Below, one piece after another: positions 2,621-29,531 of a stretch of 30,338 nt of DNA. The notes below the pieces were generated by a model, which did no database searches, was not told the origin of the DNA, and saw only the letters and a program-made list of their open reading frames with translations. Source of the DNA: Paraspadella gotoi (Eukaryota > Animalia > Chaetognatha); the NCBI GenBank assembly GCA_051294375.1, contig JBJCIZ010000374.1:2760-33097 (forward strand), in the 5' to 3' direction. The position numbers and the translations under genes are program-made. Positions within the stretch are counted from its first letter, which is position 1. Each line of letters starts with the position of its first letter.

Positions 2621-3010
2621 TGTAACGGATTGAGAGAGAGAGGGAGTTCCACAAGGGGGGACGGGGATAAAAGGAGGAGGGCGGGAAGCCATCCGTGAGG
2701 CGATTCTCCGAGAGTCGCCTTTTCCGCGAATCGCCTTTTTCCGCGAACTGTGAAGTTCGGAAAATAGAGAGAGGGAGAGAGACAGGGAAATAGAAGGAGG
2801 AGAAGATATATAAATTATAAGTCAAGGAGGAAAAGTAGAGAGAGACGTGAGAAATAAACTAGTAAAAAATTTTTAATGTTTTCACCTACTTGTAATAAAA
2901 AAAATAGAATCAAATAAACTCAAAACTACCTTCTTCTTTTTAAAACTTTCACGCTAAAGCCAAACGGTTCACGCCGAGCTAGCAAGTTGTTTGTAGCGTT
3001 AGATGCTACA
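2621..3010 (+). repeat. 5' LTR of the Gypsy element
   Basis: TGTAAC...GCTACA termini, TATA-like TATATAAA at ~2807, several AATAAA, and the CA end 4 nt before the PBS. The 5' boundary is inferred because there is no second copy. Confidence 0.7.
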
Positions 3011-3014
3011 AAAT

Positions 3015-3031
3015 TGGCGACCTTGCCAGGA
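3015..3031 (+). promoter_or_regulatory. Primer-binding site, tRNA-Arg type
   Basis: TGGCGACCTTGCCAGGA is complementary to a tRNA 3' end UCCUGGCAAGGUCG-CCA, close to metazoan tRNA-Arg(ACG). tRNA-Arg priming is known for 412/mdg1-group elements. Confidence 0.75.
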
Positions 3032-3033
3032 TA

Positions 3034-3537
3034 GTGGCGAACGCAACTCGCACTCTGGCTCCTGAGGAGACCAGCCTTCTCTACGCTTCCGTCATCAATT
3101 CCATCCTCGTTCTTTTGGAGATTTTTCTGGCGGGTCTGCTAATTCGATATGGCAGAAGGGTCGCCAGAGCCCCCAGTCCCTGGGGAGTCGCCTTTGTTGA
3201 GGCACCTGACATTGGAACCACACCAGTCCCCGCTGCCGGGAATCCATCAACTCCTATCAACCCAACCACGCCCACAGGAGCGGATAGTGAGAGAGCGGAG
3301 CCCATCATCCCAAGCTTCTCCACTCCCCGACGTCGTTCCCCACCACCCGAGCATTGCCTCACCATCCGAAGATCAAGGGGAACTTGTCCGCAGCCTTACC
3401 AGGCTTTCACTGTTAGTCGGAGACTTGGTTACGCGTCAGGAGAGCTTCAGCCAACAAATGGGGGTGGTGATGGAAGAACTCAACAACAACAATCGATCGG
3501 AGGTGAGCGAGGAGGTAGTGGTGGAGGAGCTGGTTGA
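3034..3537 (+). CDS. Single-pass transmembrane ORF upstream of and overlapping gag (GTG start)
   Basis: 14-aa N-terminus with NAT sequon, hydrophobic LLYASVINSILVLLEIFLAGLLI, basic RYGRRVAR, then a Pro/Thr-rich tail. Confidence 0.55.
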   Translation: MANATRTLAPEETSLLYASVINSILVLLEIFLAGLLIRYGRRVARAPSPWGVAFVEAPDIGTTPVPAAGNPSTPINPTTPTGADSERAEPIIPSFSTPRRRSPPPEHCLTIRRSRGTCPQPYQAFTVSRRLGYASGELQPTNGGGDGRTQQQQSIGGERGGSGGGAG

Positions 3538-3940: not shown

Positions 3941-4047
3941 GCAGAGAGGACTTGGGCGGGTCGACGGAAGATCTGCCCACTGGAGGTGGCGAGGAGAACG
4001 CGACTTCCGGATGTAGGGATCAACGTGGCGAGAGACTGTAGGAGGAG

Positions 4048-6498
4048 GTGACTGGCATTCGTTCGTCAACGGGATCGGTCGTGGAGGAGCCCATTACCAG
4101 ACATCAACCGGGTCACGATGTCAATCGATTGGCGCCCTCGACGCTGGAAGAAACTGTCCAAGGAATCTCTTTCACCTCGTGCCCAGACGAAGCCCAAACC
4201 GACTCCGAGGGATCTCGAATGTCTTCTCCAACTGTTTGTACAAAGGATTCCGGTGAGGGGAATGGGGAAACAATATATTTAGTAAAACCCGATATTCCCG
4301 GTCCATATCTGCCTATATCTTTTGGTAGTAAAAACTTGGACCCTGTGCATGTTATGTTGGATACGGGGAGTAATGTCAATATCGTTTCTATAAATATATT
4401 AGAAAAATCAGGGTTTCTGGTAAAACTATCACCAAGCCATTTAAATTTGGTAGGGATAGGGGGAGGTGGTTTAAATCTCCTTGGGGAGACCTCTTGTTTC
4501 ATAAACAATTATTCACAAAAAATTAGATTTCATGTTGTAAAGGAATTCGGTTTATGCATATTGGGTCTAACGGGTATGAAACGTTTTAAAATGCAAATTA
4601 ATCTTAATGTGGGTTTGGTCGTGTGCAATAATATGGCTATAAAATATAAAACAAATAATATCCAAATGGCTGAAACGGCAAGGATTCACGCTGTGACGAC
4701 GCGATCTGAGTGTAATCTCAAGTTAGAAGGGAAAGAGATGATAACTTACCTAAAGCTCACCGAAGGAGTCCAGGGTGATATTTGGAAGATTGACTGCGGA
4801 TTCGCCTGTAGGCGATATGGAATCATTATTTCCCGAGCAGTAATCAAAAGACAGGAATCAGGGATGGTACCTGTGGTCATAAAAAATTGGTATACACAAC
4901 CAATAAAATTATATCGAAACTGCACTATGGGAGTAGCTTCCCATAGTGAGATCATAATGGACCCGAGTGATGAAAAACCTTAGATCGATCTTAAGCCAGA
5001 TCCTGAGGATGGTGGGAATTGAAGTTAGCCCAGATGACCATCCTGTGGATAAGATCGACCCGAGCCATTTGAAAGGTAAACAAAAGGAGCATTGAGGCTC
5101 TGCTCAAGAGAAAATATAAAGCGGTATCAAGAGGAGAATGGGATTTAGGAAAACACATTTGTAGAGCATCACATTGAAATAGATAGACCAAACCAGGTCA
5201 TGAGGCTATTGTCGACCCTCCTAGACGTTACCCTTTAGAAAAACAAAAAGCCATCCGAGAGCATATTGAAAAACTTAGAACAATATAATTGAGGCATGTA
5301 AGAGTAGCCATTGTGCTTTTCCCATCTTGGCGAGCAAGCGGAAAAAGGATGGCACATTGGAAAAGAATGCTCGTATGGCTATCGATTATAGGAAATTAAA
5401 TAGCTATTCAATTCCCGTGTCCGCTTTAATACCAAATATGGCGGACGTTATCATGAGTGTTTCAGGGAATGGAAACCGTTGGTTTTCATCAATAGATCTT
5501 ACAAGTGCATTCTTTAATGTGGTTCTGGATGAGGCAAGTAGGCCATATACGACTTTCCAATCGCCAAATGGGGAGACATAGCAGTTTCTGAGATGTCCCT
5601 TTGGATTGATTAGTTCGCCAAGCACTTTTGCTTTGTTGGCAGCAAAGGTTCTGGCTGGAATTTCGTGGCAAAGTGCCTTGGCTTACCTTGACGTTATCAT
5701 TATCTTTTCGTCATCTTTTGAAGACCACTTGGAGCATGTTGAAGAGGTCCTGTGCCGCCTGGAATTGGCGGGTCTAAAGGCTAAGCCCTCAAAAATGACC
5801 TTGTTCAAAAACTCAATCCATATATTGGGTCATGAGGTCAGCCCCGAAGGGGTCAGGGCCGATGAGACAAAATTAATTGCCGTTAAGCACTGGCCAGTAC
5901 CAAAAACTGTTAAGCAGGTACAATCTTTTGTGGCCTTTGCCAATTTCTATTGGAGGTTTGTGCCACGGTTTTTGGGCATTACAAAGCCTTTGTATAGGCT
6001 CTCAGAGAAAGATGTTCCATTTGAATGGAATGAAAATTATCAACAGGCTTTTGAGGAGTTGAAAAGGTTGTTGTGCGCAGACACTTGTCTGGCGCCGCCT
6101 GACTTTGAAAAAGAATTCCATTTGTCCATAGATTGGTCAAATGTGGCTGTAGGATATGTATTGAGTCAGAAGTGTGATCGCACGGGAAAAATAAGACCGA
6201 TACTCTATGGGTCACAAGCCCATAAGGGAGTTCAGACTGATCCTAAAAGGGAAAGGAGTATTGATTCCTCCTATTTGGGAGAATATAAGGCTCTCCTCAC
6301 GGCTCTATCAGGATGTAAGGCATACCTTCTAGCTAAAGGGAACTTCACTGTCCATACCGACTGCGGTAGCCTTCTATATTTACTCCATTCTTGGTATTTA
6401 TTCTGCGATGTCTGGGGAAGATTGCCAAATTCGGAAAAGATTGGAAAATTGTCTGTTCAGGAATCCGAAATGTTGCTGCAGATGCAATGTCGCGCATC
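4048..6498 (+). pseudogene. pol: Pol: protease, reverse transcriptase, RNase H (disrupted)
   Basis: PR: MLDTGS, ILG. RT: PPRRYP, RMAIDYRKLN, IDLTSAF, CPFGL, YLDV (YLDD mutated), LGH. RH: IDWSNVAVGYVL, TVHTDC, NVAADAMSR (after a frameshift). Stop at 5579-5581 and several frameshifts. Confidence 0.95.
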
Positions 6499-6780
6499 GT
6501 GGAGGCGTGGGTTCGAATCCCACCGCTGCCACCAAGTGGAGGATAGTATTTTTAGTAGAAAATAATTCGACGCCAAGGTGAAATTGAAGGAGAATTTATT
6601 TAGTGTAACATCGAAGGGAAAGAAATAATAATAATGAGCGCGAGAATAAAATAACAATGACTTTTATATGAACTACTTTGTTTATCAAAGTAGGAATGTA
6701 AACGAGAATGGAATTTTAGGCCGAGAGAAATATTATTTACATTTTTGTAATTTACTGAATTCTTTCTCCCAATCTTCACT
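6499..6780 (-). mobile_element. Inserted LTR-like unit (6535-6780, AGT..ACT ends) plus tRNA-Leu-complementary tail, 5-bp TSD GCATC
   Basis: GCATC at 6494-6498 and 6781-6785; removing the insert restores ADAMSRIRLDVPPTG. Termini AGTGGAG/CTTCACT. Minus-strand AATAAA at ~6595-6600. Confidence 0.85.
6501..6534 (+). pseudogene. 3' fragment of mature tRNA-Leu including CCA
   Basis: GGAGGCGTGGGTTCGAATCCCACCGCTGCCA+CCA matches the T arm and acceptor 3' strand of metazoan tRNA-Leu(AAG/TAG type). Confidence 0.9.
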
Positions 6781-8282
6781 GCATCAGGTTAGATGTTCCA
6801 CCCACAGGGACTTGGGAGGAGATCTGTAGCAACAAAAAGAAAATCAGTGAGAGAATCGCGCCGGTAATCACAAGGAGCGCTTGGGAAGCTGAGAAGGCTG
6901 ACCCTGCAGCCGTCCTGAACCCTGATCAAGTTCAGGAGCCAGCAAAATTGACAGATTGGCGCAATTGGCAGGAAACGGACGAAGACCTGCTGGTATTGAA
7001 AAAATGGCTAACGGAGGGAGCTCCGGGAAGAGCCCAAGCCCGATGGAATAGTCCGGCTTTGAGATCATATTATGCATCGTTACCACAGTTTAGTCTGCAT
7101 GACGGAGTCATTGTCAGAAAATGGACTGACGCCATGGACCCAGATAAAGAGCTCAATTTACCAGTGGTGCCAGAGGATCGTGTGGTTGAATTATTATTCA
7201 ATGCTCATGAACTCCAAGGGCATCCAGGGGTCACTAGGATGCGGGATGTAATCAAGGATAAGTACTATTGGTACTCACGCGATGTCACCATAAATGAATA
7301 TGTGATGACATGCAACATTTGTGCCAGGAAAGCAAACCTCAGGGCACCCTTAGTCCAGGACAAAGCTTCGTTTTTCAATGAACGAGTAGCTATAGATATT
7401 AAGGTAATTGTATTGAACTAAGTTCGGAGAAGTGGCGTCTTTGAATTCTAACTGACTGGACTAATTCTGCGCATTGAAGACCAAATGGAATCGGGTATAA
7501 AATGGCGCAGAAGAGACGATGGCGCCGGTCCAGACGCCCTGGAGATGCTGACGACAAAGTCTCAGTAGACGACGTCGGCTAAGGCCGAAATGACGACTGT
7601 CTACGAAGCCCAGGACTTGACAAATGTTGATGTAAGTCTGAAGAAGAGTTTAAGTTAGAAGTCCTGGGCAAGAATAACAAAACATTTAGTACAAACTCAG
7701 CAAATATATAAATTTAAAGTGTCTTTCTTACTTGTTTCTGAAGCCAATAATAAACAAAATAGAGATGCTTCTCTTCATAGAAAAGTCCACCAAACCAGCG
7801 ATCACACAAAAATAAGATTCCGAGATATCTGAATAAGAGAATTTCTATGCTCTGAAAAGAACTAAAAACCCAGTGACAACTTTGAGATCTGAAGATGCCA
7901 CGTGGCCAAATTCGATAAGAATCTTAATCGAAATCCATCGAAATCACGGGCACCAATCAGAATCAGCTGTACACTGCCTTCGGAATTCTGTACTTAGGTA
8001 TAAACAAAAGAAAGAGCCTAAAGATGTCGTGTCGATCGCTAGAATGGAAGCATTTTCGATGTCAGTAATAAAGAGCAAAAGAGCAACGGGGAAAAGGTAG
8101 AGAAGCTGGATTTCCTCGTAATATTAGAGATAGTTATTTCGTAACAGTAATGACAAAACCATCGAGACATGGTTTTGTGGCAATCTTATTGATAGTAGAT
8201 TATTTCACTAGATTTGTGTCACTGACAAATCTAAAATCACAGACCGCAGAGGAAGTGTGGACGGCCTACATGGACAACTGGT
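6781..8282 (+). pseudogene. pol: Integrase N-terminal part, copy 1 (split by solo LTR, truncated)
   Basis: HHCC motif AHELQGHPG..CNIC; ERVAIDIK | VMTKPSRHGFVAILLIVDYFTRF; ends at MDNW. Confidence 0.9.
7409..8146. mobile_element. Solo LTR (738 bp) of another family, TSD GTAAT
   Basis: TGTATTGAA...TTCGTAACA termini; GTAAT at 7404-7408 and 8147-8151; removal restores the integrase frame. Confidence 0.9.
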
Positions 8283-14179: not shown

Positions 14180-15839
14180 AATAATAATGAGCGCGAGAAT
14201 AAATAACAATGACTTTTAATGAACTACTTTGTTTATCAAAGTAGGAATGTAAACGAGAATGGAATTTTAGGCCGAGAGAAATATTATTTACATTTTTGTA
14301 ATTTACTGAATTCTTTCTCCCAATCTTCACTGCATCAGGTTAGATGTTCCACCCACAGGGACTTGGGAGGAGATCTGTAGCAACAAAAAGAAAATCAGTG
14401 AGAGAATCGCGCCGGTAATCACAAGGAGCGCTTGGGAAGCTGAGAAGGCTGACCCTGCAGCCGTCCTGAACCCTGATCAAGTTCAGGAGCCAGCAAAATT
14501 GACAGATTGGCGCAATTGGCAGGAAACGGACGAAGACCTGCTGGTATTGAAAAAATGGCTAACGGAGGGAGCTCCGGGAAGAGCCCAAGCCCGATTGGAA
14601 TAGTCCGGCTTTGAGATCATATTATGCATCGTTACCACAGTTTAGTCTGCATGACGGAGTCATTGTCAGAAAATGGACTGACGCCATGGACCCAGATAAA
14701 GAGCTCAATTTACCAGTGGTGCCAGAGGATCGTGTGGTTGAATTATTATTCAATGCTCATGAACTCCAAGGGCATCCAGGGGTCACTAGGATGCGGGATG
14801 TAATCAAGGATAAGTACTATTGGTACTCACGCGATGTCACCATAAATGAATATGTGATGACATGCAACATTTGTGCCAGGAAAGCAAACCTCAGGGCACC
14901 CTTAGTCCAGGACAAAGCTTCGTTTTTCAATGAACGAGTAGCTATAGATATTAAGGTAATTGTATTGAACTAAGTTCGGAGAAGTGGCGTCTTTGAATTC
15001 TAACTGACTGGACTAATTCTGCGCATTGAAGACCAAATGGAATCGGTATAAAATGGCGCAGAAGAGACGATGGCGCCGGTCCAGACGCCCTGGAGATGCT
15101 GACGACAAAGTCTCAGTAGTCGACGTCGGCTAAGGCCGAAATGACGACTGTCTACGAAGCCCAGGACTTGACAAATGTTGATGTAAGTCTGAAGAAGAGT
15201 CTTTAAGTTAGAAGTCCTGGGCAAGGAATAACAAAACATTTAGTACAAACTCAGCAAATATATATAAATTTAAAGTGTCTTTCTTACTTGTTTCTGAAGC
15301 CAATAATAAACAAAATAGAGATGCTTCTCTTCATAGAAAAGTCCACCAAACCAGCGATCACACAAAAATAAGATTCCGAGATATCTGAATAGAGAATTTC
15401 TATGCTCTGAAAAGAACTAAAAACCCAGTGACAACTTTGAGATCTGAAGATGCCACGTGGCCAGAATTCGATAAGAATCTTAATCGAAATCCATCGAAAT
15501 CACGGGCACCAATCAGAATCAGCTGTACACTGCCTTCGGAATTCTGTACTTAGGTATAAACAAAAGAAAGAGCCTAAAGATGTCGTGTCGATCGCTAGAA
15601 TGGGAAGCATTTTCGATGTCAGTAATAAAGAGCAAAAGAGCAACGGGGAAAAGGTAGAGAAGCTGGATTTCCTCGTAATATTAGAGATAGTTATTTCGTA
15701 ACAGTAATGACAAAACCATCGAGACATGGTTTTGTGGCAATCTTATTGATAGTAGATTATTTCACTAGATTTGTGTCACTGACAAATCTAAAATCACAGA
15801 CCGCAGAGGAAGTGTGGACGGCCTACATGGACAACTGGT
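14180..15839 (+). repeat. Near-identical direct copy of 6627-8282
   Basis: Starts inside the AGT..ACT LTR, includes the solo LTR; about ten differences, mostly 1-2-nt indels. Confidence 0.95.
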
Positions 15840-16570
15840 GTCATTTTTTGGCGCCAGTTTGCAATCCACACGGATTTCAGTGTGCAGTTTGCCGCTCAAA
15901 AGGCTACAGACCTTTTAAATTAATGNNNNNNNNNNNNNNNNNNNNNNNNNGGAATTCACAAGACCCATACTGTCTCTTTCCATCCTCAGAGTGATGGTTT
16001 AGCAGAAAGACAGATCCGAACCCTAAATAACACCTTATCTAAAATCCTGATGGAGGTTGAGGCCGAGCAGGAGAAATTAGGTGTGAAAGAGCAAACTGAT
16101 TGGGGAGATTTGACCCAGATGATTCAGTTTGCCATGAATGCCTTACCCTGTAAATTCACAGGGTTTAGTCCGTTTCGAGTCTTGACCGGACAAGGTATGA
16201 ATGTCCCGTTGTCATTGACCTTTCCATTGGAAGACTGACGACAGGTGCGTGAAGTTACCTAGGGCAATTAGCATTAAGCCCAATGACGTCCGATCGTTTA
16301 GCGCCCAATTCTACAAAGAGCCATTTGTCATCACTAGGAAACTGAGTGATGTCAACTATGTCATCTGCCCAGATGGCGAGTGACGGATTGGCGGAACATG
16401 GCCGAAAGGAATGCCGAGTGGTCCACGCCAATCAGTTCAAGTTGATCGAGGATTCCATCGGAATCCCTACCCGAGAGGTTGAGAAGCGAGATCAAAACAA
16501 AAGACCATTCCGAGAGAGAAAAGTCCCTGTTCATTTACAAGACTATGATCTAACTAATGAACGAAATTAA
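14333..16570 (+). pseudogene. pol: Integrase, copy 2, through to the C-terminus
   Basis: HHCC; AID | VDYFTRF; IHTD; FHPQSDGLAER; TGFSPF; GPY/F-like EPFVI..VNY..VVHANQFK; terminal RPFRERKVPVHLQDY. Frameshifts and an N gap at 15926-15950. Confidence 0.9.
14961..15703. mobile_element. Solo LTR, duplicate of 7409-8146
   Basis: Same termini; TSD GTAAT at 14956-14960 and 15704-15708. Confidence 0.9.
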
Positions 16571-16799
16571 CAGGATTTAGTATGAATGATTGCTGACTAG
16601 CCAATGAATAAAATAAGGTAAGAAGTTTGGAACAAAGTCAAATAGATATAAAAATACCAGGGGTAAAAACAAAAAACAATAAAAGGCAATGGAAAAAATT
16701 TAAGTTTGCCTAAAACTAACATAATAAACTGACTAATGTAACAGGAATGAATAATAAAATAATAATAATAAAAACTCGAAATGTTAAACAAATAAATTT

Positions 16800-19628
16800 C
16801 AAAGAGATGAGTAACGCTCCGGCGGAACTCCGGGGCGGGCGGTGGCGGCGACGGGTGGAGGTCTACCAGGACTTCGATGGTTCCACCCCCTCCTAAGGAG
16901 TCGTCCTCGCGGGAATCAACGGCCGCTGGGATCATTGAGATCTCGTGCGACTAAAAGCCGCTAAGATGACGAAAGAGAAGTGGCGTCGAGTGGAGCGTCT
17001 CAATGGCCGCTCGCGCTCGGCGCCGACAGCAGCGGCGGAGAAGGACGACGAGGAGGATGAGGAGTGCTGTTGAGGCCGCCCCCGCGGTGAAACAAATCAT
17101 TTTCTGGAAAAAAGATAAAATCAGTTTTAATTAAATAAAATAATAAAATAAAATAATAATAGACAAATAGAAATATTCAAAGAACTGTTCCAGGCTCTTA
17201 CCGAAAGAGATTCGGAGTGTCGGCGGGGATGGCGGTGTACCATGACGTGCGGCCACGGTGATCGGGAGAGCGGAGGGGGCGTGACGCCCGACGCTCTCCG
17301 GCGTTTCCGATGTCGATGTGTTTAGGGGGAGCGATGAATGGGTCATCATCGTCGTTGCCTCCGTCCGCTTCGTCTCCTTTGTGGTTTCCTTCGTCGTCCT
17401 CGTCGTTACGGTCGTCGTCGTCGAGACGGTCGTCGTCGTCGTCGTCGAGACGGTCGTCGTCGGGGTAGTGAGGGGGTCGACTAAGATGATCTGCAAGTCG
17501 TAACCCCATCCCCTCGCTGAACGGAAAAATAAAAAGAAAAAAAAAATAAAGGATCGGCGGAATAAAATAAGCTATGGTAATAGATTAACAAATGAGTAAG
17601 GACAAATTTTACCTTTCCTGTTTGTTGTCAGGGAGGAGACAAATTCTCCGGGGCCCCGTCAAGGAGTTGTAAAACTATGTCGTCGAGATCCCCAGGAGAA
17701 GAGGTTGATTCCCCTTCTAGGAGAAAAGGGAGATTCGCCACCAGGGTGTCAATTTCCCGAAAGGTGGGAGATGGTGGCAAGGTCAGGTGGAGGGGAGCGA
17801 TTATGGAAGCCTCCGCGGAAGCAGGTTGAGAGAAATCCTCCACCATCTCTTTGATCCAGGGGTCGGCCGCAGACGAACATGGAGTGGGTTCGGTGTCGTC
17901 GACCCAATGGACGAGGGGGGTGGCCAAAGGAAGAGACAGTCAGAAAAAATGGCCTCCGAAGAGGGGAGACTTTCTGGCGGATGAGGGGCCGGGAAAATGA
18001 TCTCCGGAACGGAAGTTTCGGGGTCTGGAGTGGACGAAGAGGACGGTTCCTGAAGGATGATATAGATGCGAGAGTTGGAAGCGTCCAGAGTCGTGGAGGG
18101 AGGCGGAACCGCCGCTTCCGAATGGAAAGTTAGAGATGGCTCTGGATGCGCAGGAGAGGAAGTGATTTCACTCTCCTGCCAAACAATCTCTGGGGCGGCG
18201 CGACGGCGTTTCGGGGGATTTTGGAAAAACGTCTCTTTAGGGGACGGAGCTCGGCGGCGGCGACAACCTCGCCCACCAGAGCCCGTGGAGACAGGTGAGG
18301 AAGTCCGAGTTGAGGTCCGAGTCGGGCGAGTCGGACCTCAGATCCCTTTCCAATTGGGGCTGATAAACGAAGGGCCGAGGACAGACCAGGGGATGGGTGG
18401 CGGGCATTTCCATTCCCGGTCCGAAGAAAATCCCTGGGAGGAAATGGGGATTAACAGTCTTGGACACCCAGCTCCTGTTTTGAACCAAGGTTCGAGCCGG
18501 GGCGCATGAGGCCCCTCGATGTAGAAGAAACTGGCGCCGGTTGGCCACTGGGGGCGTGGTGGGGCGCGAGATGGGGTCCGGGATGGCATGAGGCGGTGGA
18601 TGGTACCTATGAGTAAAAGGAAAGAAATGTGAAAAAAACTATACTAGATAAAAAAGTAAGAGAATTAGAGAATCAGCAAGAAAACATAAATGAGAATTCC
18701 AAAATAACCTACTGGTAAGGAGGATCCTCCGAGTGTAAAATAGTGCTGGGTTCCACTATCTCGAAGGTGCCACGTAGGGGGAAGGTGGAACGTTGTGCGG
18801 CAAAAGGGAGCGGAGAGTCATGACGGTACCCCGAGATCCAAGGGGAACCGCCGAATATCCACTGTTCCCATCGGACTTGGCGCTCAGCCTCCGACGGGAA
18901 CTGACGACGAGGATGAAGGAGCCGGACAACTAAGGCTTCGCACCAGGAGTGTTGGGAGCGCCGGGGAAGCACTCCCACGTAGTTCCCAGGGACTCTGATG
19001 CAACCCCGCAGATCCTCCGTGGCCCCGACAGGGGGATCCCGGTCAACTCGCCACCCCATGTGGGGAAAACGGGCAGCTGCGTCGACGGCCGGGTAGCTAA
19101 GCAAGCAAAAGGGAAATCGAGATAAAGGATTGGATTCAAAGCAAAATATAAATTTAATTTAAATTCAGGACAAAATATGTTTGAACTGCTGACAATTGAA
19201 CTGCTGACAACTGAACTGCTGACAACAGTCTATTATTTTGTTTTAAACAAAATATTAAGAGATGCTTACCAGTTCCAAAACGGTGTCGTGCTGAGGTGTA
19301 CAGAACCCTGGGAGGATCTCCGTACTCCAAGGTGTGCATTTCCTCTGACAAATAGAGGCGGATCGGTGCACTGGCAGGTCTGTCTCTCTCGGGCGGCGAA
19401 GATGCCGCGCCGCCTGACGCAGCTCGAGAGTCAGAACCTCCGTGTGAAGCCGAAGAGTGAAGGGAGCCAAGAGAGTGATGGGAGTGGGCCGGACGAAGCT
19501 TGAAAAGATGAGAGATAGGACCCAGCGGAGTTGGTTGGGGTCTTGAATCTCGACGGGCGTTGGTGAGAGACCGTTGGGAAGAAGTGTCGAGGGCCCGGAT
19601 AGCCAAGCCACCAACGAAAATGTATTCC
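16800..19628 (-). pseudogene. Antisense multi-exon cassette (5 GC-rich exons, 4 GT-AG introns)
   Basis: Minus-strand introns 19269-19097 (GTAAGC..TTAG), 18712-18607 (GTAGGT..ATAG), 17612-17517 (GTAAAA..TCAG), 17201-17104 (GTAAGA..CCAG), each T-rich with a pyrimidine tract; further acceptor TTTTAG at 19630-19629. Confidence 0.7.
19182..19226. repeat. 3 x 15-bp tandem repeat TGAACTGCTGACAAY
   Basis: Seen directly, inside intron 19097-19269. Confidence 0.9.
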
Positions 19629-21140
19629 CTAAAAGCCCCGCACGACGAACTGAAAGAGCAGAAGGAAAATGCGGGAACATTTAAAAAAGGAAAAAACCAA
19701 AAGAACATCGAAAAGGAGATGAGAAATAAAATAAGCACCAAAGTAACCCAGTATTGTATAAATACAAGTAAAAAACTGTAAATAAAACCGAATTCCTCAA
19801 AATAAATGTATGTACGATTATAACCCGAGTGGGTAATCGAAATTATTCCTATTTTAGATATAAAACATATTATCTAGTTTTTGGTTTTGGTTTTGGTTTT
19901 TGGTGTGACATAATAATCCCTTTATTTAGAATGATTTTGAATGAAGGAGAGTTTTCTCCAAAAAGGATTTCTCGCGCATTTCGTCTTTTAATCAATGTTT
20001 TACCGTGCTTATTATTATAGTAATATCCAAACATTGCCAAGTTTCTAAACTGGTATGGAAATTATTAAATATCCTAATCCTTATGTTGTATTTGATAACA
20101 CGTTCTTATGACATATATTGTAATACTGTAATGGATACGTATAAATGTACTGTACTTACATGAGTAGGGTCCCGAAAAATGCCAGGAGAAAAGCCATGGT
20201 TGGGGAGATATAGGAGAAAATCTTGCTTAAAAAAAATTCAACCTTTTTCTAATAGAGATTTCCGTTCGAATCTGACTGCCCAACTTTACAAACGAGCCTG
20301 CAATAAATTCCGGTAGAAAACAGTTGTAAAAACACCCGATTCCGACAGCTTTGCATCTCAAGAGCTTGTTCCTTTCTCCTTTTGGCATTTGATAAAGATT
20401 TTACTATCAAACAAGCCAGGGGAAATGGACTACTCGTCTCCTGAGGATTTTCATACCTCATTTTTACTATAGAAATGAAAGGGAAATTTCACTTTTTTAC
20501 AAACGGGATTAGGGTATGTTAGCATTATAAATGGTACTTAGAATTGTGAGATTCCAAAAGCCTTGTGTCCCTAGCGCTCATTCTATTTTTCTTTTTATTA
20601 TTGACCAATTTTTAGTCGGATCTGCTTATCAGACAGATCCCGACTCTATAACTCACTTTTTCGGTCCGTCGGTCCGCCCCCTCAATATTGTCGGGCACAC
20701 ACTTATATCATGTCAGAACATCGAATTATGATAAATTATGCAAAAAAATGATGTCCGTCCGTCCGTCTGTCCGTCCGTCCGTCCGTCGTCCGTCCGTCCG
20801 TCCGTCCCACCTTAGCAAAAAACTCCAATTACCGTGATTGGATGGATGGATTGGTATGAAATTTTGTGTGTGGGTAGGAAACTGTGTGATTGAAGATGGA
20901 TATGAAGTTTCGAGGGAATCGTGCGAGTGGAAATTGGTTAAATGGAAAAAACAAAAAAATATATTTCTCTATTTGACGCCAATTGCTCATGAGTGGATAG
21001 TGCAATTGACTTGAATTTTGTATGATGGTAGGAAAGTGTGATCTGAGCCGGATATAAAGTTTCGATGGAATCGAGCGAGTGGAATGAGTTAAAATGGAAA
21101 AAACAAAAGTCATATTTACTTGAAGTATTTTTACTTAAAT

Positions 21141-21974: not shown

Positions 21975-22266
21975 TTGACCAAATTATGCTAATGACCAAT
22001 TATGCCAGTTGACCAATTCTGCAGTTAATCAGTTTTGCAAGTTGACCAAATTATGCCTGTTGTACCAATTAGGCTAGTTGATAAAATTATGCCGTAAACC
22101 AAATTATGCCGGTTGACCAAATTATCTTAATTGATCAAATTATGTCAGTTGACCAAAATTATGTCAGTTGACCAAATTATGTCAGTAGACCAAATTATGT
22201 CAGTTAACCAAATTAATGTCAGTTGACCAAATTATGCAAGTTGATTAAATTATGCAAGTTGACCAA
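21975..22266 (+). repeat. 18-bp minisatellite within the HINE
   Basis: GTTGACCAAATTATG(T/C)CA units. Confidence 0.9.
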
Positions 22267-26399: not shown

Positions 26400-28930
26400 A
26401 ATCTTCGTTTGCGGATCGCCTTCGTTCAAGCGTTTCGTCGAAGTTTCTCTAATCCTCGGCGAATACTTCGGGTTCACCGAGAAGAAGTACCACCAGCGTC
26501 GGTCTCTGGGTGCCGAACGAATCGACGTTTCCATCATCGAAGGAACTAGCTATTCCTTCGACGGACGTAAGGGTCTAGCGGCGCCTTTGTGCATGACTTG
26601 CGACTAGGACCTCGACTAGCGACGAGATACGACGATCGTCTACGGGTATTACTTTCGTGGATAAATTCCGTCGCTCCTTCTGATACATTGCAGTGAGATT
26701 GAAGTTCGGTCTCGATTCGTTTTATTTCTTCAAACTTTGCGCCGCGGCTGCAATACGTCGTCGTGAAACTTTCTCGATTTCTACGCCGCTACGATCATCA
26801 GCGGCGACGAATAGGATTGTGAAGAAATAAGCGCACCAGTGATCATCAGCGTCGTCGAAGCTCGAGTGTCGAAATCCTTCTTTGGAATTCCCCTTTCAGC
26901 GTTTCTTGTTGATGTTACTGTTTCCTTTATAAGACGATATCGGGCTCGCTTAAGTTCAGTAAAAGAGAAATATCGATCACTTCGCGACGTTCGACAAACA
27001 ATTTTCCAGACCCCAAATTACCTTTCCGAATATCAGACTAAGCCTTCTTCAAAGCGGACATGGCTCATATCCCTGCGAGCCATACCCTACAGGAATGCCA
27101 CGTCTTCCTTCACGGCCTCAATGTCGAACAAGCGGTCGAGGCGCATGCGGTTTCGTTTGATCGCGCTAAGACCACTCCGACGCAGGAGAATATCGCGGAA
27201 GCCAATGCGGATAGGCACATTGTGAAAGCGACTTACGAACGCATTTGTTCTGCGATATCCGGAGGCAGTTGGAATGATAAGGCGATGGAAGTTTTGTCGG
27301 ACTTCCTCAATCGCCTCCACAACATCCTTGGGCAGCGCCGCTTACTTGATTCGCGGGCTAATTCAATGTCCACGCGTGCCTCATCGGTAGAAAGCATAGC
27401 ATCGACTGGACGCTCCGTTTCCGCCACAGCACGGATAACGCCGATGCCGGAGCTACCGGAGATTTCCGAGAAAAGGGAACCAGTTCTTCGGCTGTAAACG
27501 ATCCCGACGATGGCTTCGTGGCGTCCATCCCGGCCGTTCTCGCCTCCTCCGCCATCTCCAGAAGATGAAGTAGATGGAACACTGTCCGTCTTGTTCCCGT
27601 CTGACGTCAAGCCGGCATCAACAGAGGAACAGCGCACTGAGGGAAATAACAACGTCCCAACATTATCTTTCGCCAGAACCACTGGAGGATCCTTTGGGTC
27701 CGGAGAGTGAGACTGTCGCTGTAACCGGAACGACGAGAGCTCATAGCTTACGCTCGGACATCAACGCCGCCAACGATATGGACGATGAAGCATCTCACGT
27801 CGGCGTCAAAGGAAGTGCACCAGATTTTTCCGCCATCTTTTCGACTCTTCATGGAGTTTCGGATCAACTGAGAGAGATGCGTGATGAGACAGAGGACGAT
27901 ATACATAACGTCACCGCTGCGAATCGCGCATTACAGACGAGGACGGAAACAAACGAGAGGTCGGCAGAACGAGTTTTTGGCGAAGCCGAGAAACCTTTTT
28001 CGTCGCCTGACGCCCGCAACATCGACTCGAACGGCAGACTGGGTCGAGGCTCAGACAGCGTCCCCCCGTTTGGAGCCCTCTCTCCATCAGCTTGTAGCCG
28101 GCCTTCAACTACCAACGACTCCACCGCCAGCTTACGACATAACGATTCATCATCGTGAATCGTCGGCTCGTCTCAACGAAGTCGGCACGCGTGCGTCAGC
28201 AGCAGCAGCAGCAGATCAGCACGCGGGTTCATCGGAAGCGGATCCTCGATGAGGTGAGGCGGCGGGCGTGGGAGCGGGAGCCGATGACGCTCCGCCCATC
28301 GCCAATCCTCGATTGCATCCACCAGCAACTTTGGAGTCAATACGCGACGCTTTAAGGGAACTTTGTGAACAAGGACAGCATCGTGAGGCGGCGGGAGAAC
28401 GTGAGGCGGCGGGAGAAGGAGGAGCGGTCACTTCTCCGCCTCCCCCGCCAGTCGTTTCACACGGCGCTACTACCGCTGCGGCGATGAACGCCGAAGCGCC
28501 GGCTTTTACCCTCGAAGCGTGACGCCTCATTCGGCGGCGTCACACGCTTCACACGTTTCCGGCATCCGCGGCGCCATCTTCGATCCGGCGCCGTCTGAAA
28601 CGCCTTCGACCGCTCAGCTGCGATGGCGACGGGCTTTTTTGGAATTCAAGCCCAGACTCTCGCCTTCCAAATGCTTCAGCAGCAGCGCCCAAAGAACAAA
28701 GTCGACGAAAATCTCAGCATTGGACTTTGAGCGTCAACTTCGAGACTTTCAAGTGAGCGTCTGTGCGTTGGAGGGCGCCACGATCCCATGAAGTTGAAGG
28801 AGCTACCCACTGGTTCGACGGTCTTTCCAAGCGATCCGTCTGCACGCGTCTCCTTTCTTCGAGCGCTTTAACCGTCCCCATCGCGAAATAGTAACACGAT
28901 CGTTTATTTAGGGTATTGGCTCGCTCCCCT
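26400..28930 (+). mobile_element. Decayed retroelement 5' region: GC-rich leader plus frameshifted gag/ORF1-like sequence from ATG 27060
   Basis: Chain of overlapping + ORFs (27060-28900): helical N-terminus, S/P/A-rich linker, coiled-coil-like DQLREMRDETEDDI, ending ..AIRLHASPFF..EIVTRSFIR. No LTR, PBS or RT seen. Confidence 0.45.
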
Positions 28931-29531
28931 AGTTGACAAATTACGCCCCAGTTGACAAATTTGCCAGTTGAGCAAATTATGCCACTTGACGCAAATTATG
29001 CTGTTGAGCAAATTATGTTGGTTGACCAAAATTAATGTCAATTGACCAAAATGTATGTCAGTTGCCATATATGCCAGTTGGCCATATTATGCGGTTAGTC
29101 CATTTTGCCAGGTTGACCAAAATTGTAGCCAATTGACAAATACTGCCAGTTGACGCAAATTATCCAGTTGACAAAAATTATGCCAGTTGACCAAATAATG
29201 CAACTTGATTAAATTATGCAGTTGACCAAATTATGCAACTTGATTAAATTATGCAATGTTGACCAAATTATGCAAATTGACCAAATATGCAAATTTCCAA
29301 ATTATGCAAAATTTCCAAATTATGCAAGTTAGTATTGCGCAGCTACTGGCCAGAGTTATTTATTGATTTATGATTTTTTCATAGATTTATTAAGAAGTCT
29401 GTTATTTGTTATGTTACAATTTATGATTTTTTCGAATTGAAAATCAGAAAATACTACCGTGATTAATCATGTCGATTAGCTTATTATTGTTTAATTATCG
29501 TAGCAGATCTGACATTGTTTAGTCAAACTTG
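28930..29531 (+). mobile_element. 3' part of another HINE copy
   Basis: 18-bp minisatellite at 28930-29330; 3' end GCAGATCTGACATTGTTTAGTCAAACTTG matches 23926-23953. Confidence 0.75.

Follow-up and report, generated by a model that had tools for sequence, protein, structure and literature searches.

A decayed Ty3/Gypsy element in a chaetognath with a predicted spliced antisense gene for a stalked membrane protein

Just past the integrase of a broken Ty3/Gypsy element, the Paraspadella gotoi DNA examined here carries a series of coding-like blocks on the opposite strand, and the question raised by the locus is what these blocks encode and whether they belong to the element. The window, meaning the whole stretch of 30,338 nucleotides that was analysed, is repeat-rich eukaryotic DNA. 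An initial annotation had read two of the blocks as an antisense membrane protein of type I with a mucin-like stalk, and as a candidate non-canonical Env or adhesion factor.

Pfam matches above the cut-off (RVT_1, RT_RNaseH and Integrase_H2C2), together with protease and rve matches below it, give the domain order protease, RT, RNase H, integrase that is expected of Ty3/Gypsy pol. The pol sequence lies in two pieces with 5.9 kb of other sequence between them (Table 1), and we infer that both are parts of one element. Positions 6627-8282 and 14180-15839 are 99.2% identical and differ nearly only by 1-nt gaps (one mismatch, 10 gap openings), a pattern that makes an assembly duplicate possible; this 1.66-kb pair is possibly a recent duplication or an assembly artefact. 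Inside the integrase core, at 7410-8146 and 14962-15703, sits a TG...CA insert of 737 nt flanked by a 5-bp duplication (GTAAT), which is likely the solo LTR of a different element. For the candidate 5' LTR, no second copy was found in the window, and no 3' LTR is present. The closest reverse transcriptases are 45% identical; in a quick RT tree the element clusters with P0001 and P0002 (SH-aLRT 99), the latter showing generic RT families only, and joins no named Gypsy lineage. The integrase frame terminates in ...LQDYDL near 16550, just past the 3' end of the antisense gene, the exons of which stand tail-to-tail with the integrase.

The antisense region (16800-19649) is made of five GC-rich blocks (57-62%) parted by four AT-rich gaps (GC 20-30%) of 173, 106, 96 and 98 nt. 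All four gaps run GT..AG on the minus strand, with 75-90% pyrimidine ahead of the AG, and none does so on the plus strand; from these signals the splicing of four introns is predicted. One contig of X6, a data set that is RNA by guess only, reads straight across introns 3 and 4. Because block 1 opens at an acceptor, an earlier exon is probably absent from the window, and the first exon of the gene probably lies outside it. As had been reported, no signal peptide was identified, with no ATG plus hydrophobic leader in 19650-19900 or in the LTR; with neither a start codon nor a leader located for the Thr frame of exon 4, the type I topology is putative. The minus strand holds no canonical polyadenylation hexamer between 16300 and 16810. 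A plus-strand gene in the mirrored frame was rejected, since that frame meets three stops in exon 4 and three more in exon 5, splice signals occur on the minus strand alone, and 15 differences are synonymous against 18; a poly-Val plus-strand frame at 17285 was set aside as a by-product of the repeat.

Table 1. Coordinates of the antisense blocks and of the host element in the window
Feature	Position	Strand	Remarks
Candidate 5' LTR (TG...CA)	2621..3010	+	followed by primer-binding-site-like TGGCGACC
pol: protease-like, RT, RNase H, integrase	4042..8282	+	many stops and frameshifts
3' part of pol (integrase), broken	14180..16550	+	Pfam Integrase_H2C2 and weak rve
Exon-like block 1	19270..19649	-	starts at acceptor
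Exon-like block 2, Trp-rich, open frame	18713..19096	-	5/5 listed differences on third positions
Exon-like block 3, Pro/Ser-rich, PPKRRR motif	17613..18606	-	acidic end, TGA at 17630
Intron 3 (predicted)	17517..17612	-	96 nt, GT..AG
Exon 4	17202..17516	-	Ser/Thr-rich stalk; Thr frame and Asp-rich frame both open
Intron 4 (predicted from sequence)	17104..17201	-	98 nt, GTAAGA...TTTTTTCCAG, GC 20%
Exon 5	16800..17103	-	membrane helix 17097-17040, RRCCRRRAR patch, tail
TAG private to this copy	16951..16953	-	4-5 diverged contigs differ per run, in 4/4 runs

The anatomy of the last two exons is that of a stalk, a membrane helix and a tail. Exon 4, translated from 17516 to 17202 in its Thr frame, gives RGWGYDLQ...TTT as quoted in the initial annotation, with 41% Ser plus Thr (32% Thr), no Cys and one N-T-S sequon; Pfam Mucin scores 13.1 bits on it against a cut-off of 34.7. 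Read from 17100, exon 5 gives MICFTAG...LLRRCCRRRAR, and the membrane helix, basic patch and di-Cys described earlier were recovered in translation, with a best 19-residue hydropathy of 2.44 and, following the helix, 6 K/R within 15 residues. Helix plus patch did not recur in any of 3000 Markov shuffles of exon 5, with thresholds chosen after the sequence was known. A Ser/Thr-rich, Cys-free segment stands N-terminal to one helix, the layout of a single-pass protein with a mucin stalk, and it does so in phase in one sister copy. Beyond the single in-frame TAG, the reading continues as had been described (DSREDDSL...PSPPPPAPEFRRSVTHL) into a tail with acidic and polyproline stretches, where the best 11-residue amphipathic moment is 0.54 with X placed at the stop, a single value without a control. 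The proposal that VTHL, if terminal, would be a class-I PDZ ligand, which needs S/T-x-hydrophobic as the last residues, finds no support: in this copy the frame runs on through AT-rich sequence to 16597 with no stop after VTHL, and no contig aligned at 16790-16815.

The frame of the helix and tail is under selection. Among the listed differences between copies, 18 of 25 in exon 5 are synonymous in the membrane frame against 32% expected (p 4e-5), while the remaining two minus frames have 4 of 25 each, and length variants of 6 nt that preserve the frame occur at 16882 and about 17010. Past the TAG (16860-16960) the record is sparse, with five listed differences, two of them synonymous, in addition to the variant at 16882. 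These counts draw on 39 of 40 listed differences (of 73), that at 17203 being excluded as an allele of this copy, and on 24 of a further 40 listed (of 176) once duplicates, alleles and non-exon positions were excluded; the p-values, here and below, assume independent sites and are optimistic, related copies not being independent.

In this copy the two exons do not join. Once the 98-nt intron is removed, the Thr frame enters a non-membrane frame and the Asp-rich frame stops immediately, so that the earlier statement that the join needs an indel was correct; its placement at an A4 run by the acceptor was not, the break lying near 17216 inside the stalk exon, as a length difference from one sister copy in three of four runs. 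At the A4 run itself diverged contigs pass the acceptor by 6-11 letters without a gap, too short to serve as formal bridges, and a break there was rejected. Contigs X1 (16538-18243) and X6 (16538-18434) repeat the letters of this copy with one other letter and no gaps, as does X4 (16939-18434). Because these contigs come from three studies, one of which is possibly the source sample, and match this copy, both breaks are real, and sequencing error was ruled out. At the stop codon 4, 5, 4 and 4 contigs of X4, X3, X9 and X8 differ, and all aligned depth differs in X3, X8 and X9. Diverged sister copies, with a likeness of about 80-90% over the pieces listed, have a sense codon at this position, so that no copy but this one has the stop. 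No copy number was derived from summed contig depth. In the comparison among copies that the initial annotation had called for, a sister copy in X3, X8 and X9 crosses the donor and has a length difference near 17216 by which the Thr frame comes into register with exon 5; a similar piece occurs in X6, and another sister copy (X8 record 19) cannot be phased. Judged by what may be a single sister copy, stalk and helix may be joined in phase, and their union in working copies of the element is considered likely. The present copy is dead.

These findings support the central proposal that spliced antisense exons of the element make a membrane protein with stalk, helix and tail, and that the element encodes a membrane protein here is held with high confidence. 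The more specific reading, given an even chance, takes exons 4 and 5 as the conserved 3' portion of a spliced accessory gene that this Ty3/Gypsy family would carry in antisense; its stalk-helix product would serve as a surface tether or spacer for capsid passage and not as a fusogen. The antisense RNA would be driven from the element's missing 3' end, where its promoter and first exon would lie, and splicing would unite stalk with helix in a single-pass product of at least about 200 residues. The introns of such a gene would outlast copying, since the genomic RNA is of the opposite strand and is not spliced at these sites. The Ser/Thr-rich stalk, predicted to be O-glycosylated, would stand outside the cell, the basic patch would hold the tail inside, the two Cys would be palmitoylated, and host adaptors would be recruited by the polyproline run and by a conserved segment of the tail, the whole acting as a tether or scaffold that helps capsids cross between touching cells. 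Such a role is favoured over shielding or fusion because the element is Env-less and has a small membrane ORF ahead of gag, and it is put slightly short of an even bet.

Among known systems, the closest in position are the antisense ORFs between pol and the 3' LTR (aORF-3R), which the accessible portions of two reports describe in maize Grande (gene23), rice RIRE2, Silene Retand and Botrytis Boty (PMC7264820, PMC11963269). The gene described here is likewise antisense and 3' of pol (the 3' LTR itself being missing), its coding is kept across copies, and it has no known homologue. In contrast to the nuclear or predicted DNA-binding products of aORF-3R genes (GENE23, TRP28, Smc), a membrane protein is predicted here, in an animal host and with at least four predicted introns. 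HIV-1 ASP, in the part of the account available, is antisense in the env region, membrane-associated and without homologues, with a suggested aid to transmission or entry (PMC12568219); compared by description and not by sequence, ASP differs in that it overlaps a true env of an exogenous retrovirus, whereas the gene described here faces no sense env and combines several exons with a mucin-like stalk. In the literature covered, which left subscription papers and Repbase reports mostly outside, no animal Gypsy element with a spliced antisense gene for a membrane protein was found, and ORF-based screens would miss such a gene, as it is spliced and on the other strand. How Env-less LTR elements cross between cells is an open question that has so far been answered only for forward-strand insect sORF2. 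For the extra genes that Gypsy elements carry in antisense, either a nuclear role or no known function has been described, and a surface glycoprotein would extend their cargo to the cell surface.

The same protein might instead act as a shield, its mucin-like stalk reducing adhesion, contact with immune cells or the element's re-entry, in the manner of bracovirus Glc1.8, which is reportedly mucin-like. A Cys-free, Ser/Thr-rich stalk fits steric shielding, and an antisense promoter would decouple the protein from capsid synthesis. Where Glc1.8 is present, according to the section of the source at hand, host immune cells lose adhesion and phagocytosis (PMC13539141). Against this, the stalk is short, at about 105 codons unless more exons join, and conservation is strongest in the helix and tail, which suggests a signalling or scaffolding role; shielding is rather unlikely.

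Membership in Env can be rejected, and with it the Env candidacy raised in the initial annotation: the gene lies on the strand opposite to that required, yielded no signal peptide in the regions searched, and shows neither a furin site (R-x-K/R-R) nor a Cys in either frame of exon 4 (upstream exons not included), and no Env family was found in Pfam at E values up to 5. No sense env was found either, the sole hydrophobic frame among 11 plus-strand frames between the integrase and the end of the element being the poly-Val mirror of the repeat. The Env of Oikopleura Tor elements, as given in the consulted part of its description, is the third gene of an invertebrate Ty3/Gypsy element, a membrane glycoprotein with its own promoter in some classes, furin-processed and with features of a fusion protein, and antisense orientation is not described in that part (PMC4402516); in the present gene the stalk exon has no furin site and no Cys.

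A fusogen of the FAST type is another possibility, in which exon 5 alone, from the ATG at 17100 or after a short further first exon, would fuse neighbouring cells. The helix, the basic residues (6 K/R in 15), the di-Cys and the polyproline are FAST-type motifs, so far as the source is accessible (PMC12945298), and in this copy the Asp-rich frame would end in an ATGA overlapping that ATG. The overlap, however, stems from the break in this copy and is absent from the in-phase sister copy, and the ectodomain would have about 3 residues for exon 5 alone or more than 100 together with exon 4 (starting MICF or, in the Asp frame, MGLRLA) instead of the about 30 of FAST and sORF2 proteins or, more broadly, 10-50. 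The sORF2 proteins of MDG1-group retrotransposons, in the portion of the preprint available, are forward-strand products of 63-107 aa with an ectodomain of about 30 aa, chosen by MGxxxS/T and with a Tyr after the helix, and 105 of 105 candidates are in forward orientation (bioRxiv 10.1101/2025.03.14.642691). The present gene resembles them in its Env-less element and its single helix with a juxtamembrane basic patch (6 K/R, where at least 3 in the next 15 residues are expected), but it is antisense, reads LL-RRCC with no Tyr after the helix and has no myristoyl motif. Membership in FAST or sORF2 was rejected on orientation, ectodomain length, myristoyl motif and Tyr, although the basic patch fits, and a fusogenic role is improbable.

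It might also be asked whether the repeat half of exon 4 is in fact Asp-rich, read from the ATG at 17509 (MGLRLA), with a second frame break inside the repeat parting it from the Thr half. The Asp frame stays open and has a start ATG, the GAC/GAT/GAG/GAA variation suits an acidic tract, this copy carries many lesions, and over the (GAC/ACG)n repeat only unrelated contigs aligned, with no alignable diverged copies. On the other hand, no stop interrupts the Thr frame anywhere in the exon, and its Ser/Thr/Pro-rich style extends into the part under selection. In 17217-17310, third positions of the Thr frame hold 7 of the 10 listed differences (p 0.02) and those of the Asp frame 2 of 10; over 17217-17516, among 13 listed differences (two 3' of the break being excluded), 7 are synonymous in the Thr frame (p 0.058) and 4 in the Asp frame (p 0.43). 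The conservation of an overlapping Asp frame, which had been named as what would speak against the stalk, is accordingly disfavoured in 17217-17310, while at the 5' end of the exon 2 of 3 listed differences lie on Asp-frame third positions; the only difference listed within the 5' Asp ORF changes an amino acid in the Asp frame and is silent in the Thr frame. The substitution patterns support selection for the membrane frame, and more weakly for the Thr frame, over the Asp frame, and an Asp-rich repeat half has a low probability.

Searches for homologues found none. Exon 2 matched nothing in 1.84 billion representatives, exon 5, with its stop replaced by X, nothing among 70 candidates and exon 1 nothing among 28; viral contigs held no homologue of exons 5 and 2, and PDB sequences gave two weak matches only (E 0.34 and 1.6). 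Ten antisense or small frames, with gag and protease, had no match in 86 loci, and an antisense hydrophobic-basic frame, unrelated in sequence, was seen in 1 of 16 loci with at least 1.5 kb after the integrase. A single-sequence fold of exon 2 (pLDDT 34) was not used. With no homologue found, function is read from the anatomy. The host-like introns, the absent 3' LTR and the failure to find any diverged contig physically joining pol to the antisense exons might suggest a multigene family of the host, or a host gene captured recently, beside a Gypsy fragment. This is most improbable, as the gene directly adjoins the end of pol, the very place of antisense extra genes; in 4/4 runs diverged contigs extend over the integrase end and all the exon blocks, contig cover falls sharply at 19864, and no cellular homologue was found for three exons.

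The same RNA may also yield a separate, soluble product from blocks 1-3, a suggestion that follows from blocks 1 and 4 starting at acceptors and from the stop of block 3 lying 15 nt ahead of the donor. In block 1, 6 of 6 listed differences are synonymous in one frame within 19480-19560, a sub-range picked post hoc, and 8 of 16 over the whole block. At 17631-18337 (minus strand) block 3 carries the PPKRRR motif and an acidic, amphipathic end (WIKEMVEDF, DLDDIVLQLLD; moment 0.68), which give it a likeness to nuclear regulators that bear an activation domain.

A small ORF at 2983-3537 (plus strand), which follows the primer site and precedes gag, lacks an ATG (GTG at 3034) and encodes an N-A-T sequon, about 18 residues, a helix of hydropathy 2.36, RYGRRVAR (4 K/R in 15, with Tyr directly after the helix) and a proline-rich tail. 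Its position and Tyr are sORF2-like; it has no MGxxxS/T, no Pfam match above noise and no match in 86 loci. At its widest, and with quite unlikely odds of being right in full, the locus could be pictured as an Env-less animal Ty3/Gypsy element with a transfer kit: an antisense mucin-stalk tether in the env slot, a FAST-like ORF before gag, and a nuclear regulator from the upstream exons of the same, alternatively spliced RNA. If true, the element would rank as a 'complex' retrotransposon whose entry factor is encoded in antisense.

Some further features of the window may be recorded. On the minus strand of the LTR (2621-2692) there is a single antisense ATG (2692), the frame of which leaves via the outer end of the LTR; from a 3' LTR, this frame would enter the region of the antisense gene. 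Rfam gave no matches. A second GC-rich, coding-like stretch at 26800-28900, with broken plus-strand frames at 27042-27497 and 27574-28158 and no Pfam match above the cut-off, may be the gag of a different element. An 18-nt tandem unit forms three arrays, at 297-513, 21975-22266 and 28931-29330, within a dispersed repeat.
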